From: Elusimicrobiota bacterium
GTDB taxonomy: Bacteria; Elusimicrobiota; Elusimicrobia; Elusimicrobiales; UBA9959
DNA length: 57,220 bases
Assembly: GCA_037137395.1 (NCBI GenBank)
Contig: JBAXKK010000004.1
Coordinates: 1-57,220 of the forward strand
Reading direction: 5' to 3'
Shown piece by piece: positions 4,266 through 57,220 of this stretch. A program made the position numbers and the translations under genes. The notes beneath the pieces were generated by a model that was not told where the DNA came from, did not search any database, and worked only from the letters and a program-made list of their open reading frames with translations. Within the stretch, counting starts at the first letter, position 1. Every line of letters begins with the position of its first letter.

Positions 4266-4334
4266 TCCTGCAGGATGCAGACCTGGCAGCCGTCTGCCAA
4301 ACCAATTACCGTGGAGCGTAAGCAACGCCACTAG

Positions 4335-24629: not shown

Positions 24630-24732
24630 GGGTATAGGGTTCAGGGTAGGTAAGATGATAGACGATTAGCAGCCTTCAGCTACAACCTGAATGGTTGCTG
24701 GTATTCTTGCAAATATTCAAGAGGTGATTAAA

Positions 24733-33620: not shown

Positions 33621-34589
<969 letters not shown>

Positions 34590-34765
34590 ATATACCTGGT
34601 GACTTTTCAGCATTCATCCCGGCGGGTTCACGTATCCCACCGGCAAAAATCCATTATACAATTTTATATGAAAACCCAAAAACTCCGGGGTTTCTCCCGT
34701 ATAAATTTCAGACAATTTATGTAAAATCAACATGCAAAGGTTAAAATGCATAATGCGGCGGATTT

Positions 34766-34910
34766 GGGAGTTCCGAGTTCCGGGAGTTCTGGGGAGTTCT
34801 GGGGACAGGGGGAGTTCTGGGGACAGTATATTTAATTCAACACAGGGAGTTCCGGGGAGTTCCGGGGACAGTATATTTCCGGGGAGTTCCGGGGACAGTA
34901 TATTTAATTC
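34766..34910. repeat. REP-A tandem cluster downstream of the RAYT
   Basis: Multiple ggggagttc(c/t)ggggacagtatattt(aattc) units. The last unit overlaps the RAYT stop codon. Confidence 0.9.
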
Positions 34911-38729: not shown

Positions 38730-38865
38730 GTGATAAGTGGTAAGTGGCCGGGAGTCAGGGATTAGTACCGCAAGGTGGCCAGTAACCGGTATTCGGTGAC
38801 CGATAAGCAGTGGTAAGGATTGTGTGGAGGTAAGTGAATCCTTGTTACTGACGATGACGACAATT

Positions 38866-41017: not shown

Positions 41018-41202
41018 AAGTTATAAGGGAACATGCTTGTTTAAAGAAAATGACTAAAGACGATGATTTTTATGTGAACATATCGGCGTCGGAGGTTGTT
41101 GGCTTTATGTGGGATTTAACAGAGGAATTGTGGTCTTTGCAAGGAAAAGAGTATGCTGAACGAAGATTACAAAGAAATGTTGCAAACATTGTTAAGAAAT
41201 GA
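41014..41202 (+). CDS. Small hypothetical protein
   Basis: Overlaps both neighbours. Shares the RLQR C-terminal motif with 40817-41017. Confidence 0.55.
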   Translation: MKVIREHACLKKMTKDDDFYVNISASEVVGFMWDLTEELWSLQGKEYAERRLQRNVANIVKK

Positions 41203-41605
41203 GGCAAAATTCCTCGTTGTGGGTGCCTATGCGATGGGCGCGTGTGGTTATCCCCGAGCAACAGGCGACATTGATATCTGGGTTGAAAGTTCCCCGGATA
41301 ACTCCGGGAAGGTGTACAAGTCTCTTTCCGAATTCGGCGCGCCATTGGCTGAATTGAATAAAGGATCTTTTTGTGAAAAGGGGATAATATTCCAAATTGG
41401 AATTGCTCCAAGAAGAATTGATGTCATTACACAGATTGATGGTGTTGAGTTTTCGCGGGCATATGAAAACAGGCAGGAAGTTGAAATTGAGGGGCTTAAA
41501 ATCCCGTTCCTGTCAAAAGCTGATATTATCACGAACAAGGAAGCCACCGGCCGCGATAAAGATAAAGCCGATGTAAAATATTTGCGAAAGACTCACAAAG
41601 TTTAA
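41153..41605 (+). CDS. Nucleotidyltransferase-fold protein
   Basis: FLVVGAYAM...PRATGDIDIWV, NKEATGRDKDKAD. Confidence 0.8.
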   Translation: MLNEDYKEMLQTLLRNEAKFLVVGAYAMGACGYPRATGDIDIWVESSPDNSGKVYKSLSEFGAPLAELNKGSFCEKGIIFQIGIAPRRIDVITQIDGVEFSRAYENRQEVEIEGLKIPFLSKADIITNKEATGRDKDKADVKYLRKTHKV

Positions 41606-41703
41606 AAGGGAGTAGTAGGGAAGGAGTAAGGCTCAGTACCGCAAAGTGGCCAGTATCCGGTAATCGGTAGTAAGGAAGTAAGAAATAAGGATTGGTGAGA
41701 AAA

Positions 41704-42021
41704 ATGACGGATTTGATAAATGAAATTACAAAAAGGATTGTTGACGGCTACAATCCCGATAAAATTATACTGTTCGGCTCATACGCTTATGGAAATCCCG
41801 CCGAAGGCAGCGATATTGATTTGTTTATTGTGAAAGATGACAGCAGAAGGAGAAGCGCCCGATTTTGCGAAGTGCGGAAAATGCTGAGAAGTTTTACGGG
41901 GATATCAATAGAGCCGTTGGTTTTTACAAATGAAGAATTAAAAAAACGGTTGGAGATAGAAGATGATTTTGTGCTGGAAATCATGAACAAGGGAAGATTT
42001 CTGTATGAGCGAAAGCAATAA
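41704..42021 (+). CDS. Minimal nucleotidyltransferase (MNT)
   Basis: PDKIILFGSYAYG...SDIDLFIV. Confidence 0.9.
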   Translation: MTDLINEITKRIVDGYNPDKIILFGSYAYGNPAEGSDIDLFIVKDDSRRRSARFCEVRKMLRSFTGISIEPLVFTNEELKKRLEIEDDFVLEIMNKGRFLYERKQ

Positions 42022-42400
42022 CGGCAAATTGAAAGCCGAAGAGTGGTTTGAAAAGGCGAAACATGATTTTGAAAGCGCCAGGCTGATCATTGAAAATGAA
42101 GGTTATCCTGATATCTCGGCGGTATTGCTTCAGCAGGCGGCGGAAAAGTATTTAAAAGGGTATCTGATAAGTCGGGGATGGAAGCTGGTTAAGACGCATG
42201 ATTTAAAGCTTTTAATAGATGAGGCGGTAAAATATGACAGCGGATTCGGGGATTTTTACGATTTAGCTGATGAGTTAACACAGTGTTATATCAGTGATAA
42301 ATATCCGCCTTCAACCACGGATGTGACTTCGGGAGAAGCGAAGAAGTATTGTGACGCGGTTCAGGCGATAATAAGTCTGATAGGCAAGGGGAAGGAGTAA
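42005..42400 (+). CDS. HEPN domain protein
   Basis: WFEKAKHDFESA...QQAAEKYLKGYL...KTHDL. Confidence 0.88.
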   Translation: MSESNNGKLKAEEWFEKAKHDFESARLIIENEGYPDISAVLLQQAAEKYLKGYLISRGWKLVKTHDLKLLIDEAVKYDSGFGDFYDLADELTQCYISDKYPPSTTDVTSGEAKKYCDAVQAIISLIGKGKE

Positions 42401-42511
42401 GTTATAAGTGGTAAGACTTGAAACTTACAACTTAATCCTGAAGTAAGAAATAAGTCGTAAGTAGTAAGACTTAAAACTTATTGCTTAATCCTTACTACTA
42501 CTGTTAAGAAT

Positions 42512-45500
42512 ATGAAAACGGTAAAAGAGACTAATGAGAGGGCTAAAAAGGTAGCGTCTACCTTTTTGGGCACCTTTGTCTCTCTTTTTGATCGTTTTGG
42601 TGAAGATTTTAGTAAAAAGGTAGCGTCTACCTTTTTAAGGGGAATTAAATATACTGTCCCCGGAATTACGTTACTGGTTACTGGTTACTGGCTACTGGCT
42701 ACCCAGCCCCTGATGGCGGCGGACTTGTTCCCGGGGCGCGGGTCGGCTATGAGTTCGGAGAGCGCGGACCTGGATGTTTCAGTGCCGGCGCTGCTTATTT
42801 CTACCCCCAGCTACCCCGCTAACGGCGCTTATGTGAATATCCCCAAGGCAGGGTTTTCCTGGGTCGGCGTCAGCACGGCGGTGGCTCAATATCTGGTGGG
42901 GAACTCGTACTATACGCTTCAGATTGATAATGACATTGATTTCACCAGCCCTGCGGTCATTCTTTCAACCCCTATCGTGCTCGGCAGTACCAGCGTCTAC
43001 AGCAGTGACAGCTCTATAGCCATTAGCACTCACTCACTATCGAACGCCACCACTTATTATTGGCGCGTGTTCACGGTTACCAACGGGCTCAGCGTATCCA
43101 GCGGGCCTTATTCCTCCACATTCAGCTTTGTTACTGACTTCAGTTCGCCCACGGCTTCCGGCTATACAATACTCTCAAGCTCCGGCGGATGGATGAGCGA
43201 AAGTCAGATGGTGGGGTTGTTCGGTAACGGTGCAACAGTGCGGATAAATGTGGCTGACGCGATATCCGGGCTTGCGGTTTCAACCGCGGCCATATGGAGC
43301 GGCAATGACTCGCACAACTGGGGGGATCTGACCGGCGGATTCAGCGTAAAATACACAACCTCTGCCGGCGCCAACTGGGTGGAGGGGGCCGGCTGGAAAG
43401 CCTCAAATGGCGGTGCTGTGGTGGTTTCTGGTCAATCGAGCACCTATTCGCTAGCCGCGTATAAGGGCAGATTGTACGCGGGGGTTTACTCACAGGTGGG
43501 TATATCTACTGACGGTGTAAACTGGTCCCAAACCACGCTGCCGGGCAATCCGGCACATGTTAAGTCGCTTACCGCTTACAATAACAATCTTTACGCCGGA
43601 ACCGTCAGCGGTAAAGTCTTTGTGCTTAATGAAACCAATGATACCTGGAGCGCGATTAATGGCGGGAATTCTATAGGCGGGTCGGTCGGGGCTATGGCTG
43701 TTTATAACGGTAGGTTATATGCGGCCATAGATGTCAACAAAGTGGCGGTATTTGACGGCACAAACTGGAGTTTAGCTAATAACGGCAATCCTGTGCTTAC
43801 GAGCGAGCTTTACATGACCGCTATGGCCGTTTACAACGGCAAGCTTTATACCGCAGGCTATTCCAGCGGCAAGGTGGCGGTGTTTGACGGCACTACCTGG
43901 GGCTTGACCAATGACGGTAACGCGTTATTTACAAGTCTACCAAGCGTGATGGCTTTCGCTGTTTACAACGGCAAACTTTATATTGGTTGCAATGGCAAGG
44001 TGTCCGTATTTGACGGCGCAAACTGGACGACAACTAATAGCGGTGCAGTATTGTTTACTGGTGCGAACTTGACGCGGGCTCTTGCAGTTTATAATGGCAA
44101 ACTGTATGCTAATACCGGCACCAACGGTAAAATGGCTGTATTTGACGGCACAAACTGGACCGTCGCTACTGCCAACACGGCGACAACAGGTATAACTTAT
44201 ACGGAAGCGCTGGTTGTTTACAATAATCAATTATATATTGGCGGCGACGGCAAAGTATCATTACTATCTCCGTCTACCATGACACTTACGGGGGCGGACG
44301 GTACTACTGACCCGCAGACGCTGTCGGCGGCCGCCAGCCTTAATCTGGTTCAGTCCACCAATACCCAGGCTTGCAACGGTTCAACCACATGCGGGGCCAC
44401 CAATCAGGTGGTGTTCAATGTTTCAGATATGGCCGGCAATGTGCGCACCTACGGCCCGTACGCCGTGCAGGTTGACCTCAGCGCCAGCCAGTTGTATGTT
44501 GCCACGCCATCCTGGCCGGTAAACGGCGCTTTTGTCAGTTTCCCGCGTCCCAATTTCAGCTTTATCGGAGTAAGCACCAATACTGGGGCCATGATCGGCG
44601 CCGGGTCGTATTATTATGTGGACTACGCGCGTGACGAGAATTTTACTACAGTCGAGGGCTCCACAACTTCGGCGCTGCTTCTGACGGACACCAACGCTTT
44701 TACGCTTGACGGCGCGCCCGGCCCCACCACCGAACTGGCCAACAACACCACTTACTATTGGCGCGTGCGAATCAAGACATTAATAAACAGCAATTACGGC
44801 ATCAATATAAGCACCGGCTGGTTTGTAACCGATTTCAGTTCGCCTACGGCCTCAGGCTATACGATATACTCAAGCACCAATGGGCAGATGAGCGAGAGCC
44901 AGGTGATAAATCTGGCGAACGGCGTAACCGCGCAGATAACGGTGACGGACGCTAGGGCCGGACTTGCGGTTTCAACCTCTGCGCTTTGGGCCGGAGGCGG
45001 CCAGATGTGGGGCGACACTACCAGTGGCTTCAGCGTTAACTATACCACCAGCGCCGGCGCCAATTGGCTGGAGGGCTCAAGCTGGACGGTAGTAAACGGG
45101 GGGCCGGGTGCTTGGGCGATGGCCGTTTATAATGGCATATTGTACGCGAGCGTCGGCCCCAGAGTAACCACATTTAACGGCACAACCTGGACTGCATCTA
45201 ACGGTAATAACGTTGTAATCCCAGCACCTGGGAACGAGTGGATACAGGCGATGGCGGTCTACAAAGGCAACTTATACGTTGGAAGCGGTTATAATGGAGG
45301 CGGTAACGGTCTGGTGGGGGTATTTAACGGCACAAGCTGGAGCGTCGCCAACAGCACACTCGCGGTTGTCCCGGGAGGGGGTGTGCTGAGTTTTGCCGTT
45401 TATAATAACAAACTATATGCGGGTACCACTATCGGTAAGATCGGCGTGTTTGACGGTACGACCTGGCAAGTATCTAATAGCGGCAACCCTGTAATCACAG

Positions 45501-48500
45501 GGGCGGCTAGTATCCACGCTCTTGCGGTTTACAATGGCAAGTTATATGCCGGGGATTGGCCGACAGGCAAGGTTGCTGTATTTGACGGCATAAACTGGAG
45601 CATGTCTAACAGCGGTGCCTCGATTGGAAGTTATCTAGCCGGATTTGTGGTTTACAACGGTAACTTATACGCGCGAAACTCCGGTTCCTACCCCCCTTTC
45701 CGTATGTTTGACGGCACAAGCTGGAGTTCTCCTGCCGCTCAGCCTCCTTCCCTTGACGGTAACACCCGGAATAGTGCGATGACCGTCTATAACGGCAAGT
45801 TGTACACCGGAGGTGTTGCCGCTTCTCCCGACTCTACCAAAGTAGCCGTGTTTAACGGTAAAACATGGGCTATGTCTAATAATGGAGCTCCGGTGGGGAT
45901 TAATTGGTTCCAAGGCTTTGTAGTTTATAATGACAGGTTATACGCGGCAACCGGCAACAGCCTATATGTGATGTCGAAGACAACCGCGACACTTGCCGGA
46001 GCCGACGGCACTACCGTGGGGCAGACCCTGGCGGCGTCCGGCAGCCTGAACCTGGTCCAGTCAACCAGTTCCGTTGGCTGTGGCGGCGTGGCCAACTGCG
46101 GCGCCACCAATCAGGTGGTTTTCAATGTTACAGATATGGCCGGCAATGTCGGGACCTATGGCCCGTACGCCGTGGTGGTGGACAGTATGGTCTCTGGCGC
46201 GCTGGAACTTGCCACGCCCACCTGGCCAGTCAATGGCGCTTTTGTAAATTTCACACGCCCAAATTTCAGCTTTGTCGGTGTAAGCACCAATACTGCGGCT
46301 ATTCTTGGCTCCGGCGCGAAATATCAGGTTGATTACGGGACCGACCCGGGCTTCGGCCTGGGGACTTATGCCTCAACCTCCACGTTTGTGGTTGTGGTTG
46401 ACACCAATATCGCTACGGTTGACGGCGCGCCCGGCCCCAACAGCAATCTGATCGACGCCACAACCTACTACTGGCGCGTGCTGGTTCAATCGGGCGCCGG
46501 CACTTATAGCGTGAACAGAAGCACCGGCTGGTTTATAACCGACTTCACCGCGCCGGTAGCTTCAGCGTTTTCGGTCCTTAATTCCACCGGCGGCGCATAT
46601 GATTATCGAACGCTGATAGATCTGATCAACGGCGTGACAGCGCAGATAAACGTGATTGACGCGGCACCGGGTTCCGGCGTGGGTTCGGGACTCGCGGTTT
46701 CAGCCTCTTCCCTGTGGGGCGGCAGTGACGGGCATGTTTGGAGTGATCTTACCAGCGGGTACAGCGTAAAATACAGCAGCACTGCCGGAGCGGTCTGGAC
46801 GGCCGGAACATGGAACGCGACAAACGGCGGCGCTGCTGTGACCTCTGGCGCGAGCACCTTCTACAGGGCGTTCTCGGCAGCGGTTTTTAATAATAAAATT
46901 TACATCGGAGATCAGAATGGTCGCGTGTTTTGGACAGCCAACAATGGCGTCGATTGGACCGCGTCAAACGGCGGCTCTGCCTTGCCCGGGAACGGCGGCA
47001 GTAAACAGTCAGCCGCGGTTTTTAACAACAAACTTTACTTTGGAGACCAAAGCGGCTATATTTTAGAAAGCTCGGACGGCGGGAGTTGGAGCGTCGTAAA
47101 CGGAGGGGCACCCCTGGATACGGGTACTCCCGCTATTTACGCTCTTGCGGTTTATAACGGCAGGCTGTACGCCGGGGCCAACAATGGTAAAGTGTATTTT
47201 AGCGCGAACGGCAGCCGCTGGAGCACCGGCGTGCCTGTGGCAAACTTTATCGGCTCGCTCGTGGTTTATAACGGCAGGCTGTACGCCGCGGATCAACAGA
47301 CTAAAAAAGTGTATGTGAGCGTTGATGGCGTCACTTGGACAGCGATAAACGGCAATGCGATCGTTTCAGCCACAGCGCTTAATGCGCTTGCGGTTTATAA
47401 CGGCAGGCTTTATGCAGGGGATAATGGTAGGGTGTATGAGAGCTCAAACGGCGATACTTGGACAGGTGGTATTGCCACCGGTAATAATATTGTGGCGGGT
47501 TTTACAACTTTCAACGGAAAGATCTACGCTCCTGACGCAGGCGGCCGCGTGTTTGAGAGCGCCGATCCTGCCGTCAGGTGGAACGCAACCAATTCCGGCG
47601 CGGCAATAACCGGCGGGGATCGGGTGGTTTGCGTTTATAATAATAAAATTTACACCGGCGGAGACGGCAGCTCCAAGATTCACGCCTTCACGCCGACCCC
47701 GGCCACGCTTACCGGAACCGACGGCACTACCACGGCTCAGACCCTTACGGCGACTGGCCTCAGCATGGCCCAGACAACCAATACATACACTTGTAACGGT
47801 GCTTTCCCCTGCGGCGCCACTAACCAGGTTATATTCAACACCACGGACAGGGCCGGGAATGTCACCACCTACGGGCCTTTCTCGGTGCAGGTTGATATTA
47901 TTAATAGCGGCATATTCGTTGCCACGCCGGCCTGGCCGGTCAACGGCGCTTTTGTCAATTTAAGTAAGCCCAATTTCAACTTTGTGGGTATAAGCACTAA
48001 TGCCGCTTCTGTAATAGGCAACGGGGCGCGCTATGTGGTGGAGTACTCGGCCGATGCGAATTTTAGTGTCGTAGGCACCACTTCAACGCTGCTTGTTCTT
48101 ACCGACACAAACGCTATTACGGTGGACGGCGCTATCGGGCCCAATGCCAGTGATCCGAATATCCCGGCTTTGGCTGATAACACCACCTATTACTGGCGCG
48201 TGAAGGTCAAGACGATCCTGAGCACCTACAGTATGTGGATAAGTACCGGCAGATTTATAACCGATTTTACCCAGCCGGTGCCGACTAATTTTAAGGCTGT
48301 CTCCTTTGGCGGCGCCCTGATGAGCGAGGGTTCATTTGTAACGCTGGCGCGCGGGGTTACGGCGCAGATAACCGTAACTGACGCGACCGGGTTGGCGGTT
48401 TCAACTTACGCCTTATCCAGCAGCGACGGCCATGACTGGGGCGATACTACCGCCGGATTTAATGTCAAATATACCACCAATTCCGGTGCCAACTGGATAG

Positions 48501-51500
48501 AGGGCAACGATTGGGCTCTCACAAATGGCGGCAGTACGATACTGGGGGGGACAGCCATAAGAGCTCTCGTCTCTTACAAAGGTAAATTATATGCCGGAGT
48601 TTATCCCGGCGGCAAGATCGCCATATTTGACGACGCGACCGGTACCTGGACCGCGTACAATTCCGGAGCCGCGATCTTGGGTGCTTCGTATGTTTATAAT
48701 TTTGCCGTTTACAACGGTTATTTATACGCAGGAACCAACAACGGTAAAGTGGCTAAATTTGACGGCACGAACTGGACCGACAGCCTGATGAGTTCAGGGG
48801 TGTCAGGGGTGGGGGAGGTTGAGTCGCTTGCCGTTTATAACGGCAAACTATACGCCGGATACTATACCAACGGCAAGGTGGCTGTATTTGACGGCACAAC
48901 ATGGCGGGTATCCAACAACAATAACCCTATAATATCGGGGGGGCCGTTGGAGGTGGATGCGCTTGGCGTTTATAACGGCAAACTATACGCCGGCAATGAG
49001 CGCGGCCAGGTGGCTATATTTGACGGTGCAAACTGGACTATGGCCAATGGCGGAGCCGCGATTTTAGGCGCTGGCTCGGCAACATCCCTTACCGCATATA
49101 ACGGCAACCTGTATTTGGGAAATTATTCAGGTTCCGGTAGCGGAGCAGGCGCTGTATTCAACGGCACAACCTGGGCAGCGACACCAATTGTGGGGGCTGT
49201 TGCCAACTGGACTGAAAGAGGGCAATCATTTGCTGTTTACAATGGCAAGTTATATGAGGGAACCTGGCCTTCCGGCATTGTGACCGTGTATGACGGCACA
49301 ACCCGCAGCTTTGCTAACCGCGGCACACCGGTATTCCCGGGGTCGGGTATGGGCGGTGCGCCGTATATCGCTGTGACCGCTCTTACCGCTCATAACGGTA
49401 AGCTATACGCCGCCAGCGACACCGGCCTGGTGGCTGTGATGTCGCCGTCAAGCGTTACGCTTAGCGGATTTGACGGCACTACCGGGGTTCAGACCCTGAC
49501 AGTGGCCGGAAGCCTGAATCTGGCGCATTCAACCAATACCTCTGTCTGTAACGGTTCCTATACCTGCGGCGCTACCAATCAGGTTGTGTTCAATATGACG
49601 GATATGGCCGGTAATGTTAAAACCTACGGCCCATTCGCGATATCGGTGGATATCGGCGCCGGTCCGCTGGCAGTTGCCACGCCAACCTGGCCGGTAAACG
49701 GCGTTTTTGTAAATTTTAAGCGCCCCAATTTCAGCTTTATCGGCATGAGTACCAATACCGCTGCCATGATAACCGGCGCGCAGTATCAGGTAGATTGGGG
49801 GAAGGACCAGAACTTCGGAAGCTATACCTCCACCTCTATGGCCGTGGTTCTCGACACCAACGCCTTTACCATGGACGGCTCTATCGGCCCCAATGCCGGA
49901 TCAGAGCTGGTCGACAATACCACCTACTACTGGCGCGTGCGGGTTAAAACCAATTACAACAATTATGGCGTCAGCGCCAGCACCGGCAGATTTATAACCG
50001 ACTTCACTATCCCGGCGGTTTCAGCTTATCAGGTTATGTCAGCCGACGGTGCCTCGCTGAACGAGAACCAGCCCACAACTCTGTTCAATAATGTCACGGC
50101 GCAGATAACAGTGACTGACGCGGCCGGGCTTGCGGTTTCAACCTCGGCGATTTGGGCCAATGACGCCCATAGCTGGAGCGATCCGTCAGCCGGGTTCAGC
50201 GTAAAATATACCACCAGCGCCGGCGCCAACTGGCTTGAAGACGCCGGTTGGACGGTTATGAACGGCGGCGATGCTATAATCACTGGTGCGAACAGGGTGG
50301 AGGCGCTGGCTGTTTACAATGGCAAACTATACGCCGGAACCAGGTTTAGCAAAGTAGCGGTATTGGACAGTTCAACCGGGAGCTGGACCGTGGCTAATAA
50401 CGGTAATGCTGTTTTGGATAGTGGTGATGGACCGCTAGTTTTTGCCGTTTATAACGGCAAGTTATACGGGAGCGGGACTAACGGCAAAGTGGCCCAATTT
50501 GACGGCACAGATTGGACCGTGACCAATAACAATACCGTGGTAGTGCCGGGCGCGACTATAATGTCGCTCGCCGTTTATAACGATAAGTTATATGCCGGGA
50601 CCAATATAGGCAAGGTTACTGTATTTGATGGCAACACCTGGAGCGTATCCAATAACGGCAACCCGGTATCTACTGGCGCGCAATATGTGGCCGCGCTTGG
50701 GGTTTACAATGGTAAATTATACGCCGGAACCAATCCCAACGGCAAAGTGGCTGTGTTTGACGGCACAAACTGGTCCCAGGCTAACGGCGGTGTCGGAGTC
50801 GGCGGCACAGCCGTGACGGGATGGGCGGTTTATAACGGCAAATTATACGGAAAGATAGCCAACAACGGCGGCGGGGTGGCAGTGTTTGACGCCGCAACCG
50901 GGGTCTGGAGCTCCATTTCTTATTCGCCCTTGGCTAATAGTTTCAATATTGGCGCGATGGCTGTTTACAACGGCAAGTTATACACCGGATACTGGTTTAT
51001 CCCGAAGGTGGCTGTATATGATGGCACGAACTGGACCACCGCTAACAACAACGCCGCGATAACCACCGGGATTAATCTGTTAGGTATGGCGGTTTATGAA
51101 GGCAAGCTTTATGTGGGTATGGACAGCAAGGTTATCGTTATGTCGCCTTCTACCGCGACGCTCACCGGCTATAACGGCACTACCGGGGGCCAGACACTGG
51201 CGGCGTTCGGCAGCCTGAACAATCTGGTCCAGTCCACTAACACTCTGGTCTGCGGCGGCGTAGCCGGCTGCGGCGCTACTAACCAGGTGATATTCAGCGC
51301 TTCGGATATGGCCGGCAATGTCAGGGCCTACGGCCCCTACGCCGTGCAGGTGAATATCGGCGTAGGCTCGTTGGCGATCGCCACGCCCACTTGGCCAATC
51401 AATGGCGCTTATGTTAATTTTTACCGCCCCAATTTCAATTTTATCGGCGTAAGCACCACTGCCGCGGCTATGCTCGGCACCGCCGCGCAGTATCAGGTGG

Positions 51501-54500
51501 ATTACGGGACCGACCAGAGCTTTGGAAGTTATACATCCACCTCTATGGCCATTGTTCTGGCCGATACCAACGCGTTCACAGTGGACGGCGTCGTAGGCCC
51601 CAATGTCGGTTTAGAGCTGGCCGATAAAACCACCTACTACTGGCGCGTGCGGGTTAAAACGATATTCGCAGATTACGGAATAAACATAAGCACCGGCAGA
51701 TTTATAACCGACTTTGCGATTCCGGCTGCCTCGGCTTTTCAAGTCCTCTCCAGCACTAACGGCTGGCTTGGCGAGAGCCAGGCCATAACCCTGACCAATA
51801 ATGTTACCGCGCAGATAACCGTTACCGACGCGGCTGGTCTGGCGGTTTCAACCTCAGCGCTGTGGGGCGGAGGCGGCGGCCTTAACTGGGGCGGTTATAC
51901 CGGCGGGTTCAGCGTAAAATATACCACTTCGGCCGGCGCCAACTGGGTTGATAATTCCACCTGGACAATTTCAGCTAACGCTGTGATCACCGGGGCGACC
52001 GGCGTTTATTCATTTGCCGTTTATAACGGCACATTGTACGGGGGAATGTATCCGGGCAAGGTGGCAAAGTTGAGCAGCGCAACCGGGATCTGGTCCGAAG
52101 ACACAAGTTTTGACAAGGTGGCACTGGGGCTGGGCGATCAGATACTATCGTTTGCCGTCTATAATAACGAATTATACGCGGGATCAAATAATGGTCATGT
52201 GGCTATATTTAGCGGCACAAGCTGGAGAGTGGCCAACAACGGCAACGCGCTGTCGGGGGCGGTGGAGACTCTTGCAGTTTACAACGGCAGATTGTACGCC
52301 GGAACCTATCCCGGCAAAGTATATGCATTTGACGGTTCAACCTGGAGCGTATCGAACAATGGCAACAAGGTAATTACATATAGCACCGGCGGAGACTACA
52401 TTGTAAATACGCTTTGCTCCTATAATGGCAGATTATACCTTGGAGCCAATTGGTATCAGAAGTTAGGTGTATTTGACGGCTCAACCTGGACCACAACTAC
52501 CGCGGACGGCGGTGATCCGCAATCGTTTGCGGTTTATAACGGAAAGTTGTATTCGGGTGGCGATAATTTTGGCAAAGTAGGCATGTTTAATGGCGCAAGT
52601 TGGAGCGTGACTAATGGCGGCAACGCGGTATTCCCTGCCGGAGGGCGCGTGACCGCGCTTATTGTTTACAAAGGTAAATTATACGCTTTTAGCTACGCCG
52701 GCAATGTGGCCGTATTCGACGGCACAAACTGGACTGCGGTTAATAATGGCACCCCTGTAATCGCGACAACAACCGCGCTATTCGCGGTTGCCGTTTACGA
52801 CGACAAATTATACGTGGGGAACGGGACGAGCGGAAAAGTAGCCGTGATGTCGCCTGCTGCGGTAACGCTTACCGGCGGCGACGGCACTACCAACGCGCAG
52901 ACCTTGTCGGCGGCCGGCAGCCTGAATCTGGCCCAGTCAACCAATACCGCGGTCTGCGGCGGCGTCGCCAACTGCGGCGCTACCAACCAGGTTGTATTCA
53001 ACGCCACTGACCTGGCCGGCAATGTTCTTGCCTACGGCCCTTATGCCGTGCAGGTGGACTATGCCGCGTCCTCGCCGCTGATGATTTCTACGCCGTCGTA
53101 CCCCGCTAACGGGGCGGTGGTCGGTACTTCCAAGCCCGGCTTCAGCTGGATAGGAGCCAATACAACTTTCGCTTCGGGTATAGGGCAAGGCGCTAATTAT
53201 AATCTTGAAATCTCACGCGACCCGAGTTTCGCTTCCTTCGATGTGAGGCTGTCAACGCCTGTTGTTGTCGTAAGCACCATGATTCCTACGGTTGACGGCT
53301 ATATAGTTTTAAGCACGCATACATTAAGTGATAATACCACCTATTACTGGCGCGTGCGCGCTCAGACGGCTTTAGGCAATTACGCGCCGTTCATAAGCAC
53401 TTTTAGTTTTATGACGGATGTTACAGCGCCGCAGGGAACCGCGGTAAAAGTGATGATACCGGGCACGGGTTTTGTGGATGTCAACGCGATTTATTCGCCT
53501 TTGGCCGCCGGGCTTACCGTCCAATTCACCCTTGAGGACCCCTGCTCCGGCCTGGCGCTTTCAACGGCTTCGCTTGATAACCTGGCAGGTGGCATAAGCG
53601 TTTTTTATAGTTCCACTTCCGGCAATTCATGGAGAGGCGGCGACTGGTCCGCGCTGAGCGGTGGCGCGGCTATTCCCATTTTCGGCGGGAACTACCCTCT
53701 ATGTATAGCGGTTTACCAAGACAAACTTTATGTGGGATTAAGCAACGGCACAATTGTTTATTTGGATGGCGCTGTATGGAGCGGGGCCAATGGCGGTTCC
53801 GCGCCGTTGGTGGTAGCTAATACCATTACAAGTATGCGGGTTCTCAACAACAGGCTTTATGTAATAAATGACAGTGGCTACATCGGTTATCTCAGCGGCA
53901 CCACCTGGACCAACCTGGGCCGCGTGGCGCCGTATGCCAATAGATTAGGGCCCGTCAATAACAACAGTATTACCGCCTATGGCCCCGGCCTCTATGTTTC
54001 CAACAGCGATGCCAACTGGGTGTTGCTGAGTAGCGCAATGTGGGGGGCTGGAGGTTGGCCTCCTTCCACATCTTATAACGGCCGGGCATATTTTGGTTGG
54101 GACGGGGGTCCTTCTCTAGCGCTGAATATTTTTGATGGTAAGGGCATTAACCTATGGGCGCCGCCGTGGACTAATGCCAATTATGCGCGCAGTATGTATA
54201 CCTACGACGCTAAGTTGATGTACGGCGGGCAGGCGGGCCAGATCAGGTATAACCACGCGGACAACTCCTATCTATCCTATCCGGGTAGCACTTACGGTTT
54301 TTCCACACTTTATAGATCCACCCTGTTATATGCCTATCGCGCCGGTACTCCTAATGCAATTAGATTTGCTTTTGCTGATGAGAAGTCTGTTTTCACTAGT
54401 CCGATGATAGACTCTGCCATGTACTATGCGCAATATCAGGGCAAGTTATACGCGTTTCATGATGCGAATTCGGGTGTAAATATGGGCAAGGGTCTTGTTT

Positions 54501-57220
54501 ACGACCCGCTAAGAATAGAATACACCGGGGGCGACGGCAGCAAGAGTTCTCTGGTCACCGCCTATGGTTTTGATCTGAGGCAGACCACTAATACCGTGCC
54601 CTGCAACGGCGCCTGGTCCTGCGCCGCCACCAATCAGGTGCTTGTGGTTTTCTCTGACCTGGCCGGCAATGTGAACAGGTACGGTCCGTACTCCGTGCTG
54701 GTGGACTATGTGCCCACCAGTCCCCTGTTTATTGCCACGCCCATCTGGCCGGTTAACGGCGCTTATGTAAATATCAAACGCCCTAATCTTAGTTTTATAG
54801 GTATAAGCACCACAGCCGCTAACTCGCTTGGTTTGGGCGCGCAATATCAGGTGGATTACTCGCTCAAAGCTGATTTCTCCGACATCCCCGTCTCCACCTC
54901 AACCCCGCTGGTTGTAGCCGACACCAACGCCTTTACGGTAGACGGCGCTATCGGCCCCAATGTGGATCTGGCTGATAGCACCACTTACTACTGGCGCGTG
55001 CGGGTTAAAACGTCGCTCAGCACTTTTGGCATAAATACCAGCACCGGCAGATTTATAACCGACTTTACGGTTCCGGCTGGCTCGGCTTATCAGGTTCTAT
55101 CCAGCACTAATGGCTGGCTGAGCGAGAGCCAGTCCATATCACTGACCAATAATGTTACGGCGCAGATAACCATAACTGACGCAACCGGATTGGCTGTTTC
55201 AAGCGCAGCCCTTTGGAGCGGCAACGACGGCCACGACTGGGGCGATTACACCTCCGGTTTCAGCGTAAAATATACCACCAGCGCCGGTGTCAACTGGGTG
55301 GAGGCTTCCACCTGGGCCAGTACAGGTTTCAATAGCCTCACAGCATCCATAAATGATGTGATCTCGCTTGCTGTTTACAATGGCGAACTGTATGTGGGTT
55401 CCTATCCCAGCAAGTTGGGAATCTTTAACGGCACCAGTTGGCGCATGGCTAATAATAACAATATGGTGTTTTCCACACTATTGCAGGTGAAGTGTCTTGC
55501 TGTTTATAACGGCAACTTATATGCAGGATCCACCGATCCAAGCGGACAAGTGGCCAAGTTCGACGGAACGACCTGGAGTTTGACCAATAACGGCGCCGCT
55601 ATAGCCGGAACTACGAGAATCTGGTCGTTAGCTGTTTACAATGGCAAGTTATACGCAGGGCTCGACCAAGGCAAAGTGGCGGTATTTGACGGCACAACCT
55701 GGAGCGTGACCAATAACGGCAATGCAATATATGCCGGTGCGACTGGCGTGTATTCGCTTGCTGTTTACAATGGCAAATTATACGCAGGAATCGCTGATGG
55801 CGAGCCTAACCGCGGAAGAGTGGCGGCCTTTGACGGTGCGAACTGGAGCGCAACTACTGATATAGGGTATATGGCTGTTCAGGCGCTTACCGCTTATAAC
55901 GGTAAATTGTACGCGGGAGTTTGGAGCGGCGTTCCTATGGTCTATAACGGTATAACCTGGGATACTGTTAATGGCGGCCAGGCTATATTAAGCGGAATCA
56001 GCCGCGTGCTCTCCTTCGCTGTTTATAACGGTAAATTATACGCCGGAACCTATCCCGGCGGCAGGGTGGCAGTATTCGACGGCACAACCTGGAGCGCGGC
56101 TAATTCCAATAAAGCTATATTATCGGGGTCCAATGCTTCGGGCACGCTTGCCGTTTATAACGGTAAACTGTATTCCGGAACCGACAATTACCAGGTGGCC
56201 GCAATGTCGCCTTCGGGTGTAAATATTACCGGTATCAACGGGACCACCGGGGCGCAGACACTGTCGGCGACCGGAAGCTTGAACAATTTAGTCCAGTCAA
56301 CCAATACCATAGTCTGTAACAGCATGAACTACTGCGGCGCTACTAATCAGGTGGTATTCAACGCCACTGACCTGGCCGGCAATGTGCAGAACTACGGTCC
56401 GTATTCCGTTATAGTTGACTACATGGCCAGCTCGCCGCTGATGGTGTCCACTCCTTCATATCCCGCGGACGGGGCGTCCGTCAGGTACTCAAAACCGGGC
56501 TTCAGCTGGATTGGCATCAGCACGGTTACAGCCGCGATACTGGGCGGAAGCGCGCAATATATACTGCAGGTGGATAATGACAGCGACTTCTCAAGCCCTA
56601 CGGTGATACTTAATAAACCCATAGTTGTGTACAGCACAACCGATTACACCGTGGACGGATTTATACAGGTTACCACCCACACATTAACCGACGGCACATA
56701 CTACTGGCGCGTGGCAGCACAGTCCGGTGTAAGCCTGGGTCAATGGAGCGCGGTGCGCAGCTTTATCCTTGACACGGCGAAGCCGGCTTTCAATAATTAC
56801 AAGATATTTTCCTCAACCGCCGGGCTTATGTCGGAGACGCAGCTTATAAGCCTCACCGGCGGGGTTACCGTTCAGGTGGATGTGCAGGACCTCGGCTCCG
56901 GCCTGGCGGTTTCAAGCAAATCAGTACTAACGGCCTTATCCGGTTCAGCGGGCAGTGATTTTACCAATGGCTTTGGCGTGATGTATTCCACCAATGCCGG
57001 CACGACATGGATACACGGCGACTGGGACACCGTGGATTTAAGCGCCCTGCTGGGGACAGGTTGTGAAGTTACCAATATGGTGGAGTACCAGAACGACCTT
57101 TATCTAGGCCAATCCGGCGGGTGCAATAAGATGCCTGTTTATAATAGCGCCACTGGGAACTGGGGTGTAACTACATTGCAGGCCGGTTTGGTAGGTACAG
57201 GTGGCGTATCGGCGATGGCA
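42512..57220 (+). CDS. Giant modular surface protein (>4,903 aa, 3' end beyond window): at least 9 repeats of FN3/Ig-like scaffold plus beta-propeller
   Basis: ATG at 42512. Hand translation at the start, middle and end stays in one frame (ends AGLVGTGGVSAMA). The ORF track lists no ORF in this frame, as expected if no stop occurs. Repeat spacings are all multiples of 3. Confidence 0.9.
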   Translation, partial: MKTVKETNERAKKVASTFLGTFVSLFDRFGEDFSKKVASTFLRGIKYTVPGITLLVTGYWLLATQPLMAADLFPGRGSAMSSESADLDVSVPALLISTPSYPANGAYVNIPKAGFSWVGVSTAVAQYLVGNSYYTLQIDNDIDFTSPAVILSTPIVLGSTSVYSSDSSIAISTHSLSNATTYYWRVFTVTNGLSVSSGPYSSTFSFVTDFSSPTASGYTILSSSGGWMSESQMVGLFGNGATVRINVADAISGLAVSTAAIWSGNDSHNWGDLTGGFSVKYTTSAGANWVEGAGWKASNGGAVVVSGQSSTYSLAAYKGRLYAGVYSQVGISTDGVNWSQTTLPGNPAHVKSLTAYNNNLYAGTVSGKVFVLNETNDTWSAINGGNSIGGSVGAMAVYNGRLYAAIDVNKVAVFDGTNWSLANNGNPVLTSELYMTAMAVYNGKLYTAGYSSGKVAVFDGTTWGLTNDGNALFTSLPSVMAFAVYNGKLYIGCNGKVSVFDGANWTTTNSGAVLFTGANLTRALAVYNGKLYANTGTNGKMAVFDGTNWTVATANTATTGITYTEALVVYNNQLYIGGDGKVSLLSPSTMTLTGADGTTDPQTLSAAASLNLVQSTNTQACNGSTTCGATNQVVFNVSDMAGNVRTYGPYAVQVDLSASQLYVATPSWPVNGAFVSFPRPNFSFIGVSTNTGAMIGAGSYYYVDYARDENFTTVEGSTTSALLLTDTNAFTLDGAPGPTTELANNTTYYWRVRIKTLINSNYGINISTGWFVTDFSSPTASGYTIYSSTNGQMSESQVINLANGVTAQITVTDARAGLAVSTSALWAGGGQMWGDTTSGFSVNYTTSAGANWLEGSSWTVVNGGPGAWAMAVYNGILYASVGPRVTTFNGTTWTASNGNNVVIPAPGNEWIQAMAVYKGNLYVGSGYNGGGNGLVGVFNGTSWSVANSTLAVVPGGGVLSFAVYNNKLYAGTTIGKIGVFDGTTWQVSNSGNPVITGAASIHALAVYNGKLYAGDWPTGKVAVFDGINWSMSNSGASIGSYLAGFVVYNGNLYARNSGSYPPFRMFDGTSWSSPAAQPPSLDGNTRNSAMTVYNGKLYTGGVAASPDSTKVAVFNGKTWAMSNNGAPVGINWFQGFVVYNDRLYAATGNSLYVMSKTTATLAGADGTTVGQTLAASGSLNLVQSTSSVGCGGVANCGATNQVVFNVTDMAGNVGTYGPYAVVVDSMVSGALELATPTWPVNGAFVNFTRPNFSFVGVSTNTAAILGSGAKYQVDYGTDPGFGLGTYASTSTFVVVVDTNIATVDGAPGPNSNLIDATTYYWRVLVQSGAGTYSVNRSTGWFITDFTAPVASAFSVLNSTGGAYDYRTLIDLINGVTAQINVIDAAPGSGVGSGLAVSASSLWGGSDGHVWSDLTSGYSVKYSSTAGAVWTAGTWNATNGGAAVTSGASTFYRAFSAAVFNNKIYIGDQNGRVFWTANNGVDWTASNGGSALPGNGGSKQSAAVFNNKLYFGDQSGYILESSDGGSWSVVNGGAPLDTGTPAIYALAVYNGRLYAGANNGKVYFSANGSRWSTGVPVANFIGSLVVYNGRLYAADQQTKKVYVSVDGVTWTAINGNAIVSATALNALAVYNGRLYAGDNGRVYESSNGDTWTGGIATGNNIVAGFTTFNGKIYAPDAGGRVFESADPAVRWNATNSGAAITGGDRVVCVYNNKIYTGGDGSSKIHAFTPTPATLTGTDGTTTAQTLTATGLSMAQTTNTYTCNGAFPCGATNQVIFNTTDRAGNVTTYGPFSVQVDIINSGIFVATPAWPVNGAFVNLSKPNFNFVGISTNAASVIGNGARYVVEYSADANFSVVGTTSTLLVLTDTNAITVDGAIGPNASDPNIPALADNTTYYWRVKVKTILSTYSMWISTGRFITDFTQPVPTNFKAVSFGGALMSEGSFVTLARGVTAQITVTDATGLAVSTYALSSSDGHDWGDTTAGFNVKYTTNSGANWIEGNDWALTNGGSTILGGTAIRALVSYKGKLYAGVYPGGKIAIFDDATGTWTAYNSGAAILGASYVYNFAVYNGYLYAGTNNGKVAKFDGTNWTDSLMSSGVSGVGEVESLAVYNGKLYAGYYTNGKVAVFDGTTWRVSNNNNPIISGGPLEVDALGVYNGKLYAGNERGQVAIFDGANWTMANGGAAILGAGSATSLTAYNGNLYLGNYSGSGSGAGAVFNGTTWAATPIVGAVANWTERGQSFAVYNGKLYEGTWPSGIVTVYDGTTRSFANRGTPVFPGSGMGGAPYIAVTALTAHNGKLYAASDTGLVAVMSPSSVTLSGFDGTTGVQTLTVAGSLNLAHSTNTSVCNGSYTCGATNQVVFNMTDMAGNVKTYGPFAISVDIGAGPLAVATPTWPVNGVFVNFKRPNFSFIGMSTNTAAMITGAQYQVDWGKDQNFGSYTSTSMAVVLDTNAFTMDGSIGPNAGSELVDNTTYYWRVRVKTNYNNYGVSASTGRFITDFTIPAVSAYQVMSADGASLNENQPTTLFNNVTAQITVTDAAGLAVSTSAIWANDAHSWSDPSAGFSVKYTTSAGANWLEDAGWTVMNGGDAIITGANRVEALAVYNGKLYAGTRFSKVAVLDSSTGSWTVANNGNAVLDSGDGPLVFAVYNGKLYGSGTNGKVAQFDGTDWTVTNNNTVVVPGATIMSLAVYNDKLYAGTNIGKVTVFDGNTWSVSNNGNPVSTGAQYVAALGVYNGKLYAGTNPNGKVAVFDGTNWSQANGGVGVGGTAVTGWAVYNGKLYGKIANNGGGVAVFDAATGVWSSISYSPLANSFNIGAMAVYNGKLYTGYWFIPKVAVYDGTNWTTANNNAAITTGINLLGMAVYEGKLYVGMDSKVIVMSPSTATLTGYNGTTGGQTLAAFGSLNNLVQSTNTLVCGGVAGCGATNQVIFSASDMAGNVRAYGPYAVQVNIGVGSLAIATPTWPINGAYVNFYRPNFNFIGVSTTAAAMLGTAAQYQVDYGTDQSFGSYTSTSMAIVLADTNAFTVDGVVGPNVGLELADKTTYYWRVRVKTIFADYGINISTGRFITDFAIPAASAFQVLSSTNGWLGESQAITLTNNVTAQITVTDAAGLAVSTSALWGGGGGLNWGGYTGGFSVKYTTSAGANWVDNSTWTISANAVITGATGVYSFAVYNGTLYGGMYPGKVAKLSSATGIWSEDTSFDKVALGLGDQILSFAVYNNELYAGSNNGHVAIFSGTSWRVANNGNALSGAVETLAVYNGRLYAGTYPGKVYAFDGSTWSVSNNGNKVITYSTGGDYIVNTLCSYNGRLYLGANWYQKLGVFDGSTWTTTTADGGDPQSFAVYNGKLYSGGDNFGKVGMFNGASWSVTNGGNAVFPAGGRVTALIVYKGKLYAFSYAGNVAVFDGTNWTAVNNGTPVIATTTALFAVAVYDDKLYVGNGTSGKVAVMSPAAVTLTGGDGTTNAQTLSAAGSLNLAQSTNTAVCGGVANCGATNQVVFNATDLAGNVLAYGPYAVQVDYAASSPLMISTPSYPANGAVVGTSKPGFSWIGANTTFASGIGQGANYNLEISRDPSFASFDVRLSTPVVVVSTMIPTVDGYIVLSTHTLSDNTTYYWRVRAQTALGNYAPFISTFSFMTDVTAPQGTAVKVMIPGTGFVDVNAIYSPLAAGLTVQFTLEDPCSGLALSTASLDNLAGGISVFYSSTSGNSWRGGDWSALSGGAAIPIFGGNYPLCIAVYQDKLYVGLSNGTIVYLDGAVWSGANGGSAPLVVANTITSMRVLNNRLYVINDSGYIGYLSGTTWTNLGRVAPYANRLGPVNNNSITAYGPGLYVSNSDANWVLLSSAMWGAGGWPPSTSYNGRAYFGWDGGPSLALNIFDGKGINLWAPPWTNANYARSMYTYDAKLMYGGQAGQIRYNHADNSYLSYPGSTYGFSTLYRSTLLYAYRAGTPNAIRFAFADEKSVFTSPMIDSAMYYAQYQGKLYAFHDANSGVNMGKGLVYDPLRIEYTGGDGSKSSLVTAYGFDLRQTTNTVPCNGAWSCAATNQVLVVFSDLAGNVNRYGPYSVLVDYVPTSPLFIATPIWPVNGAYVNIKRPNLSFIGISTTAANSLGLGAQYQVDYSLKADFSDIPVSTSTPLVVADTNAFTVDGAIGPNVDLADSTTYYWRVRVKTSLSTFGINTSTGRFITDFTVPAGSAYQVLSSTNGWLSESQSISLTNNVTAQITITDATGLAVSSAALWSGNDGHDWGDYTSGFSVKYTTSAGVNWVEASTWASTGFNSLTASINDVISLAVYNGELYVGSYPSKLGIFNGTSWRMANNNNMVFSTLLQVKCLAVYNGNLYAGSTDPSGQVAKFDGTTWSLTNNGAAIAGTTRIWSLAVYNGKLYAGLDQGKVAVFDGTTWSVTNNGNAIYAGATGVYSLAVYNGKLYAGIADGEPNRGRVAAFDGANWSATTDIGYMAVQALTAYNGKLYAGVWSGVPMVYNGITWDTVNGGQAILSGISRVLSFAVYNGKLYAGTYPGGRVAVFDGTTWSAANSNKAILSGSNASGTLAVYNGKLYSGTDNYQVAAMSPSGVNITGINGTTGAQTLSATGSLNNLVQSTNTIVCNSMNYCGATNQVVFNATDLAGNVQNYGPYSVIVDYMASSPLMVSTPSYPADGASVRYSKPGFSWIGISTVTAAILGGSAQYILQVDNDSDFSSPTVILNKPIVVYSTTDYTVDGFIQVTTHTLTDGTYYWRVAAQSGVSLGQWSAVRSFILDTAKPAFNNYKIFSSTAGLMSETQLISLTGGVTVQVDVQDLGSGLAVSSKSVLTALSGSAGSDFTNGFGVMYSTNAGTTWIHGDWDTVDLSALLGTGCEVTNMVEYQNDLYLGQSGGCNKMPVYNSATGNWGVTTLQAGLVGTGGVSAMA

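Follow-up and report, generated by a model that had tools for sequence, protein, structure and literature searches.

A giant gene of an uncultured Elusimicrobia bacterium predicted to encode a surface fiber with β-propellers inserted into sandwich domains

What kind of protein is encoded by an open reading frame that extends for 4,903 codons and is still open when its contig ends, and where does this protein stop? The question is raised by the 3′-terminal part of the 57,220-nucleotide stretch of DNA analyzed here in full (hereafter, the window), which corresponds to contig JBAXKK010000004.1 (contig C4) in the genome assembly GCA_037137395.1. The source of this assembly is an uncultured freshwater Elusimicrobia bacterium; the assembly itself comprises 2,695,951 bases in 174 contigs, with completeness of 98.89% and contamination of 7.71%. 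Judging from the sequence, the frame is the 5′ part of a giant gene whose product, of ∼9,710 residues, is probably a cell-surface fiber with 14 inserted β-propellers as its binding heads, i.e., a multivalent adhesin or capture fiber. By a rough estimate from the usual sizes of the domains, the length of such a fiber would be of the order of 100 nm. Few Elusimicrobiota have been cultured. One survey places them among the phyla most prone to encoding huge proteins (PMC11573180). The architecture of these huge proteins is largely undescribed, and the gene in the window provides a concrete example of one.

The initial annotation of the window, made from its letters alone, had pointed to an open frame of at least 4,903 codons that was missing from the list of open reading frames. 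A new list of open reading frames, which includes the frame, and the translation of the forward strand from position 42512 to 57220 both agree with this description, as the frame contains no stop codons whatsoever. With stops making up ∼3 of the 64 codons, such a run would not be expected to arise by chance. The annotation also proposed that the contig be extended until the stop is found, and the extension is provided by contig C40 of the same assembly. The final 55 bases of the window recur without a mismatch at the end of C40 (minus strand), and this 55-mer is present in only 2 of the 174 contigs, C4 and C40. On C40, the frame is open from the first base, has no start codon of its own, and runs for 4,825 codons (18 of them within the overlap) from C40:22164 (−) to a stop at C40:7686, for a joined product of 9,710 residues. 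The profile of the repeated module that makes up most of this protein (see below) is split over the junction, with its positions 1 to 254 found at the end of the window and positions 247 to 564 found at C40:21114-22142 (−). After joining, module 9 and its closest copy, module 10, can be aligned over their whole length with no break at the junction (153 identical residues of 257 before it and 162 of 308 after it). On the basis of these sequence comparisons, C4 and C40 can be predicted with high confidence to adjoin in a single gene.

Two observations weigh against this join: it is based on an overlap of just 55 bases, and position 57220 is not spanned by any listed contig of the compared sequencing runs. 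These gaps leave room for a different explanation, in which the gene in the window ends soon after the end of the contig, and C4 and C40 carry two similar genes that overlap by coincidence and encode two proteins of ∼5,000 residues, one without an anchor and the other without a signal. The break of the assembly at this very point, its contamination level of 7.71%, and the existence of a paralogue with a single module on contig C55 are all in keeping with two genes. This explanation would have to account, however, for the restriction of the 55-mer to the ends of C4 and C40, for the continuity of both the frame and the module profile across the junction, for the similar closeness of both parts of module 9 to module 10, and for a C40 frame that is open from its first base without a start of its own. 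Two separate genes therefore appear quite improbable.

Within the window, the frame was checked against contigs generated by a different assembler from a public sequencing run that contains 96% of the sampled words and is probably the source sample, so that this comparison serves as an assembly check and not as independent biological support. These contigs covered all 30 bins of the region 42400-57220 with no insertions or deletions and a single substitution, and the uninterrupted reading assumed in the initial annotation survives, as no frameshift was seen in them. Runs X2 and X3 provided only partial coverage of the stretch. Four short joints in the compared contigs (42567/42612, 43769/44140, 44028/44140, and 51715/55191), with 21 to 23 bases on the shorter side, were considered as potential deletions; this interpretation was rejected, and the joints are taken as repeats or sequences from other organisms. 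Since the modules are only 28 to 59% identical to each other, with DNA identity of at most ∼75%, collapse or expansion of the repeats by the assembler is unlikely as well.

Residues 97 to 8037 of the joined product consist of 14 modules of 543 to 596 residues each, all of which were recovered by the module profile in its own genome. The initial annotation had counted nine of these, and its count holds for the window, where the proposed starts (those of modules 1 to 9 in Table 1) coincide exactly with the (S/A)TP..P motifs at residues 97, 664, 1234, 1804, 2389, 2957, 3526, 4075, and 4646, and where the proposed lengths of 549 to 585 residues are correct; the array itself is not limited to nine modules. 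The motifs quoted there, TTYYWRV, F.TD, GLAVS, VKYTT.AG.NW, C-x5-C-(G/A)ATNQ, and D.AGN..YGP, are all present, many of them among the 46 invariant columns in the alignment of the 13 complete modules. Each module includes an FN3-like part, the first half of a putative β-sandwich, a propeller, and the second half of the same sandwich. The chain would exit the sandwich past an Asp-box-like turn (YTTSAGANW) and, once the propeller is built, complete it with the segment that carries TLTG.DGTT..QTL, C-x5-C, ATNQ, and D.AGN. The mean pairwise identity is 43% for the FN3-like part, 43% for the first sandwich half, 53% for the second half, and 32% for the propeller, and the level of divergence suggests that the modules are old copies. 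The propellers, which had been described as different ones, do differ, with pairwise identities of 18 to 49%, but as diverged copies of one family rather than as members of different families. The FN3-like part matches the Pfam family Ig_Rha78A_N (PF25788), with scores of 74.6 bits in the window part and 57.9 bits in the C40 part against the cut-off of 27.4, where the bits are summed over the modules and only one single stretch passes the cut-off alone. In the second sandwich half of every module (e.g., at 51250-51290), an invariant Cys-x5-Cys is followed by an invariant Ala-Thr-Asn-Gln; the two Cys residues probably close a loop by forming a disulfide bond. The CGEQ motif of complement proteins is known to form a thioester, and a thioester was also considered for Cys-x5-Cys-(G/A)-A-T-N-Q but was dropped on account of the different spacing.

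The structure of module 5 was predicted with AlphaFold2, using as input the 13-row alignment of the complete modules from the gene itself. The resulting model has a mean predicted local distance difference test (pLDDT) value of 71.8 and a predicted template modeling score (pTM) of 0.65. Its residues 1 to 108 form an FN3-like fold of seven strands, and residues 190 to 490, modeled at pLDDT of ∼80 to 90, form 28 strands arranged in seven sets of four. In a VIA structure search against 48,161 representative chains, residues 189 to 492 matched virginiamycin B lyase (2z2n_A) with a Z score of 29.8 and a root mean square deviation of 2.3 Å over 280 of 293 residues, at 8% sequence identity, followed by WD40 proteins, YncE, Lp49, and Bacteroides sensor propellers with Z scores of 25.6 to 27.9. 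The best Foldseek matches by E value were designed Kelch proteins and KEAP1 (E values down to 1.2e-11), with 2qc5 also listed. The single-module prediction returned a closed propeller, as the initial annotation had anticipated, with blades of four strands. Its estimate of about seven blades per module is borne out by the 28 modeled strands and by a loose regular expression, which found exactly seven AVYNGKLY-type motifs in 6 of the 14 modules (M1, M2, M3, M6, M10, and M14); in the other eight modules, the same expression over- or undercounts the blades.

The blade consensus derived from 48 blades of seven regular modules reads LAVYNGKLYAGt..GKVAVFDGttWs.tN and is followed by a variable tail of ∼12 residues, for a period of ∼43 residues. 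The strand ahead of blade 1 (..AGWTVMNGG) follows the pattern of the outer strand of a blade, and only three strands belong to the seventh blade itself. This combination suggests a “velcro” closure that would bring the two ends of the chain next to each other, which is the geometry needed by an inserted domain. None of the Kelch or other propeller models reaches its cut-off on the propeller: the Beta-prop_KIB1-4 score is 95.6 bits as a sum and 36.2 bits for the propeller alone, without any stretch that passes individually, and the Kelch_FKB95 score is 25.6 bits against the cut-off of 70. Accordingly, the propeller is referred to here as Kelch-like and is not assigned to the Kelch family. Some relatives (P0032) carry precomputed Kelch families. 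A sialidase-type propeller with BNR repeats (Asp boxes) was considered and rejected, because the blades have FDGT.W or S.DG..W, one residue shorter than S-x-D-x-G-x-T-W, and the only BNR match (E value of 0.074) was to the sandwich turn YSTNAGATW in a relative. Searches of Pfam and NCBIfam revealed no family for the propeller, for the split sandwich, or for two other elements discussed below, an insert of ∼140 residues and a stalk repeat of ∼158 residues, with nothing beyond weak or summed matches.

Does the propeller sit inside another domain? According to the initial annotation, it is accommodated by a loop of an Ig-like domain. Several lines of evidence, including natural variants, co-occurrence of the two halves, and a complete propeller between them, make it very likely that it is indeed inserted in a loop of a split β-sandwich of ∼150 residues. 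The variants come from a survey of the 150 best relatives of the module, re-scored with the module profile after exclusion of the fragment from the window itself. Among these, 62 pairs of halves enclosed something other than a propeller: 14 pairs were separated by −16 to 11 residues, 4 by 138 to 141, and 44 by 187 to 229. In the uninterrupted relatives, the propeller is replaced by ∼12 residues that link the two halves, in the pattern ..VTAQI.VQD..SGL....SV.YSTNAGATW..V.ST..G..PY..L.G..GST.AQTL...CGG..PCGATNQV.F.VSD.AGN...GPYAV.VDT. The 48 inserts of more than 100 residues fall into a cluster of 44 and a cluster of 4. An example from the larger cluster is a LamG domain (Pfam Laminin_G_3, E value of 4.4e-29), and an example from the smaller one (∼140 residues) showed no family match in Pfam or NCBIfam. 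In the three LamG examples that were located, the insert lies one loop before the propeller site, between D..SGL and the YST.AG..W turn, and in two examples of the ∼140-residue insert it ends immediately ahead of the same turn. The sandwich therefore appears to accept insertions in two loops.

These variants, however, could also be explained by two small independent β-domains that simply adjoin each other and flank an optional propeller like beads on a string, with no insertion at all. The poor confidence of the sandwich models and the fact that, within the second half, matches to family models of the OmpL47 type are limited to the last two strands agree with that explanation: the OmpL47-type β-barrel domain (NF047446) was detected in 2 of the 10 uninterrupted relatives at no more than 21.6 bits against the cut-off of 40, which does not make them members of that family, and the match was confined to the last ∼22 residues (profile positions 46 to 67 of 68). 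Independent domains would hardly be expected to co-occur in fixed order as often as these halves do, with a second half found after 148 of the 184 first halves and a first half found ahead of 148 of the 164 second halves. The orphan halves that were inspected proved to be mostly ends of protein fragments or single matches covering both halves. The FN3-like part is found on its own in tandem arrays, in contrast to the sandwich, for neither half of which such arrays were seen. Further, the LamG domain in the relatives cuts the first half into pieces that are too small to fold independently.

Structural modeling of the sandwich points in the same direction with less force. When residues 109 to 192 and 489 to 562 of module 5 were folded as separate chains in three runs, the score was 0.33 (0.33, 0.03, and 0.42 in individual runs), compared to 0.01 for the best control, with contact agreement of at least 1% and partner pLDDT of at least 43. 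In calibration, the mark used for this test was reached by 116 of the 157 solved complexes and by 2 of the 215 mismatched pairs; at scores of 0.60 or less, it was reached by 18 of the 157 solved complexes and by both mismatched pairs. Accordingly, the test lends weak support to the two halves folding together as two chains. A model of an uninterrupted relative, built from a 10-row alignment with the eleventh sequence left out, aligned over residues ∼1 to 143 with single Ig-type, FN3-type, or similar sandwiches in all 50 of the 50 neighbors listed by VIA (Z scores of 5.5 to 6.6), as would be expected from one domain and not from two.

The insertion is weakened, on the other hand, by the low pLDDT values (35 to 60) of the flanks, residues 109 to 190 and 491 to 568, in the model of module 5; by the single run of the two-chain test that scored only 0.03; and by the modest quality of the model of the uninterrupted relative (mean pLDDT of 57.8, pTM of 0.55), for which Foldseek returned nothing at an E value of 0.001 or better and for which the best VIA score of 6.6 lies below the level of 8 at which the tool is trusted. 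On balance, the bead-like arrangement of independent domains seems unlikely, and insertion into a single sandwich is the preferred interpretation.

The relatives surveyed above were drawn from a search of a library of 1.84 billion protein representatives with the module profile, which yielded matches to 18,686 proteins at an E value of 0.001 or better and to 565 proteins at 1e-30 or better. In a scan with one genome per species, 19 of the 74 loci covered the module from end to end. Of these 19, 17 come from entries titled Elusimicrobia, Elusimicrobiota, Elusimicrobiales, or Elusimicrobiaceae, and the other two are titled “bacterium” only. Most of the remaining loci match the propeller only; they belong to Planctomycetota, Latescibacterota, Chloroflexota, Gemmatimonadota, several archaea, and others. 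Stand-alone relatives of the propeller outside Elusimicrobiota are mostly annotated as “hypothetical” and are often fused to LamG. The relatives that have been named at all are listed as “hypothetical protein” or under generic labels. Thus, the search over other genomes suggested in the initial annotation indicates, at the sequence level, that the module family is nearly confined to Elusimicrobiota. Within the phylum, the module was found at an E value of 1e-20 or better in 4 of the 120 other genomes sampled, and the small genomes of the commonest family in that sample contained none. A relative of the same class has a 20,647-residue open frame with at least 10 modules of this family (G092:C17), and a 6,200-residue open frame was seen in genome G072.

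What could the propellers do? Their invariant columns in the 13 aligned modules are Tyr, Leu, Tyr, Asn, Trp, Gly, Gly, Trp, and Tyr, all of them structural; Asp, Glu, His, Lys, and Arg are not conserved at any propeller position of these modules. The combination of conserved cores with differing loops and no conserved polar residues of the catalytic type suggests that the propellers are binding heads. The protein could, alternatively, represent a surface array of lyase-, hydrolase-, or cyclase-like enzymes. The best structural match by Z score, virginiamycin B lyase (2z2n_A, and also 2qc5), is an enzyme, and so are many extracellular propellers. Nevertheless, the sequence identity of this match is a mere 8%, WD40, Kelch, YncE, and sensor propellers all follow within 4 Z units, the invariant columns are limited to aromatic residues, Gly, Leu, and a single Asn, and the same socket in the relatives holds lectin-like LamG domains, all of which makes catalytic propellers very unlikely.

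Another conceivable role is a structural one: without binding specific ligands, the fiber would serve as a surface coat or spacer, giving the envelope its shape or protecting the cell. A coat would suit a genome in which many large proteins carry this C-terminal tag (11 matches over the cut-off), and propellers to which no ligand can be assigned. Yet the propellers diverge faster than their scaffold, and lectin-type heads are interchangeable in the relatives; both trends are more readily explained by selection on binding than by a uniform coat, for which the chances are therefore rated as slim. The binding role is itself faced with two difficulties, namely, that none of the runs listed as carrying this stretch is an RNA run, and that the fold matches of the propeller are generic, with enzymes among them, and do not indicate any ligand. 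Multivalent binding is nonetheless the role that we consider probable.

How such a protein might reach the surface can be judged from its termini. A hydrophobic segment that resembles a signal peptide (Table 1) has its core at residues 51 to 66, after a long N-region, and ends in ..MAA before the Asp at position 70. It is included only if translation starts from the ATG at 42512; the public gene call (P0003) covers residues 80 to 4903 and would lack this segment, leaving the start uncertain and the signal less secure. Several repeats were noted around the start, in the regions 42400-42511 and 42545-42640. A 24-base direct repeat within the first 45 codons encodes KKVASTFL twice, and one compared contig skips 44 bases between the two copies (42567 to 42612). 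Two copies of a motif of ∼30 bases (..gtaagactt.aaactta...cttaatcct..) lie just 5′ of the start.

At the other end of the protein, the module array is followed by eight repeats with a period of ∼158 residues (residues 8130 to 9360), which could form a stalk. A single stalk repeat retrieved only clusters of “hypothetical protein” from the ESM Atlas, with recognition below the usual level; in one of these clusters, 13% of the members carry BNR_assoc_N, which may be considered a lead. The last ∼350 residues appear by eye to contain two FN3-type domains (the Pfam fn3 model gave an E value of only 0.6), followed by a C-terminal sorting domain of type A (TIGR04183/PF18962) that matches TIGR04183 with 25.8 bits (cut-off of 23) at residues 4740 to 4821 of the C40 part and with 32.6 bits in the genome search. 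The matches to Por_Secre_tail (21.0 versus 27) and FlgD_ig (22.1 versus 27) stayed below their cut-offs. A sorting domain of the FlgD or type IX secretion kind had been expected at the C terminus in the initial annotation; its presence on C40 agrees with that, and it belongs to the giant gene only if the join is right.

The next gene downstream (Table 1) encodes a PorV/PorQ-like barrel with a C-terminal TPR part, and the PorV-family cut-off is exceeded by 13 further frames of this genome. Pairing of tagged proteins with barrels is common in this genome: for 10 of the 13 matches to the sorting domain, there is a PorV-family match on the same strand within ∼1 kb downstream, and the other three include one at a contig end and two without a PorV match downstream. 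In four more cases, barrels are found behind frames whose tails matched only via the tail of the PorU model. One of these four is a second tag-barrel pair within the window: the frame 19695-24629 (+) encodes 1,644 residues that include CarboxypepD_reg and end in a tail of the FlgD_ig type, and immediately behind it, at 24691-25698 (+), lies the gene for a 335-residue barrel of the PorV/PorQ family that scores over the cut-off (160.7 bits). The C55 paralogue, a giant 3,111-residue open frame with one propeller module at C55:3044-4696 (+), likewise comes with a C-terminal tag of its own (C55:11720-11965) and with a gene for a PorV-like protein (C55:12156-12926).

Based on these features, the following route can be envisaged. 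The protein would be exported by Sec and then cross the outer membrane, after which its C-terminal domain would dock on the dedicated barrel and be retained at the surface in the way PorZ is retained by PorQ. The repeat stalk would lift the axis formed by the FN3-like and sandwich domains, and the 14 propellers would project sideways from this axis, binding glycans or proteins displayed by other cells or present on particles, each potentially with a different specificity. The FN3-like domain and the split sandwich would together act as a socket for interchangeable heads, a notion that draws on the relatives, in which the same scaffold carries no insert, a LamG domain, or a small jelly-roll-like domain.

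Several observations weigh against the anchoring part of this scheme. The match of the downstream barrel to NF033709 (81.7 bits) falls short of the cut-off of 90 and covers profile positions 9 to 207 of 326. In this 98.89%-complete genome, the best GldK match has 69.6 bits against the cut-off of 350 and involves only the sulfatase-modifying-enzyme part; the best SprA match has 77.3 bits against 200 and lies at C6:34016-35467 (−), within a 1,781-residue open frame; and PorU was matched by the C-terminal tail alone, at no more than 29 bits against 420. With GldK, SprA, and PorU all below their cut-offs, none of these core type IX parts accounts for the passage of a 1-MDa protein through the outer membrane. 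The SprA-like frame could encode a diverged outer-membrane translocon. GldM had no match in this genome, nor did it have one in the control genomes. General Pfam and NCBIfam scans of either half of the gene found no RTX or hemolysin-type calcium-binding families.

In its broadest form, the proposal is that Elusimicrobiota use a socket that accepts heads in at least two loops, build from it multispecific fibers of up to 20,647 residues, and anchor them through private tag-barrel pairs without the classical type IX machine; this must be regarded as tentative and perhaps doubtful. If true, very large surface proteins would have a new system for their display and anchoring, with the socket as a natural scaffold for domain display. 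The extreme repetition of a nested domain insertion would be of use in studies of fold evolution and protein folding, and the occurrence, genome-wide, of tagged proteins with PorV-like barrels of their own provides a lead to surface anchoring outside Bacteroidota. Going by its sequence features, the giant protein may also be considered a candidate for the attachment of free-living Elusimicrobia to particles, hosts, or prey.

TABLE 1 Coordinates of the giant gene, its modules, and the adjacent barrel gene
Feature	Position	Strand	Size or residues	Basis or remarks
5′ part of the giant gene	42512..57220	+	4,903 codons	Begins with ATG; no stop before the end of the contig
Hydrophobic, signal-peptide-like segment	42644..42721	+	Residues 45-70	Read from translation; ..LMAA before DL
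Module 1	42800..44500	+	567 aa	Alignment; profile 1-564, E 1.9e-211
Module 2	44501..46210	+	570 aa	Alignment, profile
Module 3	46211..47920	+	570 aa	Alignment, profile; blades with S.DG..W-type turns
Module 4	47921..49675	+	585 aa	Alignment, profile
Module 5, FN3-like sandwich	49676..49999	+	Module residues 1-108	Seven strands in model; Ig_Rha78A_N
Module 5, predicted first sandwich half	50000..50245	+	Module residues 109-190	Ends in Asp-box-like turn VKYTTSAGANW
Module 5, predicted inserted seven-bladed propeller	50246..51145	+	Module residues 191-490	pLDDT ∼80-90; Z 29.8 to 2z2n_A
Module 5, predicted second sandwich half	51146..51379	+	Module residues 491-568	Contains C-x5-C, ATNQ, D.AGN
Module 6	51380..53086	+	569 aa	Alignment, profile
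Module 7	53087..54733	+	549 aa	Degenerate propeller; closest copy module 11 (59% identity)
Module 8	54734..56446	+	571 aa	Alignment, profile
Module 9, first part	56447..57220	+	First 258 residues	Profile, alignment with module 10; remainder on C40
PorV/PorQ-like barrel gene, next downstream	L010:5607-7220	−	537 aa	PorV_fam 81.7 bits, E 6.8e-23

Several neighboring genes deserve a brief mention. Directly upstream of the giant gene, a nucleotidyltransferase gene (Polbeta/NTP_transf_2) at 41692-42021 (+) overlaps by 17 bases with a HEPN gene at 42005-42400 (+), in the layout that is usual for a toxin-antitoxin-like pair, and a further nucleotidyltransferase of the DUF6036 family is encoded at 41153-41605. 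The window also contains an IS200-like Y1 transposase gene at 34904-35566 (−), genes with sulfatase-modifying-enzyme domains at 33621-34613 (−) and 38824-40644 (+), and two frames without any Pfam family, 6069-8855 (−) and 8893-11382 (−), that encode 928 and 829 residues, respectively, and lie in a region of strongly negative AT skew (−0.37 to −0.39). On C40, a histidine kinase gene lies upstream of a 528-residue frame at 2721-4307 (−) that unites the C-terminal portion of FliF (YscJ_FliF_C) and the middle and C-terminal domains of FliG and that may represent a FliF-FliG fusion.

The closest parallels to the proposed architecture come from RTX adhesins, such as the ice-binding adhesin of Marinomonas primoryensis and FrhA of Vibrio cholerae (PDB 6X5V), in which a split extender domain projects the ligand-binding domain (PMC10523503). 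These adhesins share with the predicted giant protein the design of a giant fiber of sandwich-type extenders, with the binding domain borne by a split companion and the binding heads off the fiber axis, and they differ from it in having type I secretion, near-identical repeats stiffened by Ca2+, and a single copy of each binding domain near the tip. The giant protein, by contrast, would have the split device in 14 copies, a seven-bladed propeller as the head, a type IX-style tail, and modules with just 28 to 59% identity. RrgA, the pilus tip adhesin of Streptococcus pneumoniae, likewise has Ig-like domains that are each assembled from two chain segments with a binding domain inserted in between. 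With ∼900 residues, it has just one such nested set, a head of the von Willebrand A type, isopeptide bonds, and pili linked by sortase; no such pili, head, or bonds were seen in the giant protein.

In the type IX secretion system of Porphyromonas gingivalis, PorZ-PorQ and PorU-PorV form the attachment complex, and Bacteroidota also have giant adhesins of the SprB type. Common to these systems and the gene described here are a C-terminal sorting domain, a barrel of the PorV/PorQ family, and a very large repetitive surface protein. What sets the latter apart is the barrel gene of its own next to a tagged protein (10 of the 13 tag matches), GldK, SprA, and PorU that all remain below their cut-offs, and the phylum, Elusimicrobiota, judging by the titles of the closest relatives. 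The predicted propeller resembles Kelch-repeat propellers (KEAP1 and the designed SAKe proteins) and seven-bladed propellers (virginiamycin B lyase, Ycf48, and YncE) in its four-stranded blades of ∼43 residues, and the blade itself is Kelch-like, its inner strand carrying aromatic-Gly-x-Leu-Tyr and its outer strand a Trp. KEAP1 and the SAKe proteins are six-bladed, unlike the model of module 5 with its seven blades.

Propellers and sandwich repeats are also found together in other large surface proteins, including BapP of Pseudoalteromonas tunicata, described as having one terminal five-bladed propeller (PMC12153261), and the RCC1-propeller giant proteins of Oscillospiraceae, described as having propeller repeats in series (10.1101/2023.11.21.568195). 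Neither is described with a propeller inserted in a sandwich. Full-text literature searches on giant propeller proteins of Elusimicrobia, on type IX secretion in Elusimicrobia, and on adhesins with inserted propellers yielded no account of this architecture. The principle of the split extender is known from RTX adhesins and from Gram-positive pilus adhesins such as RrgA; what is new here is its 14-fold repetition, the propeller as the head, the scaffold that allows head swapping, and the predicted private tag-barrel anchoring.

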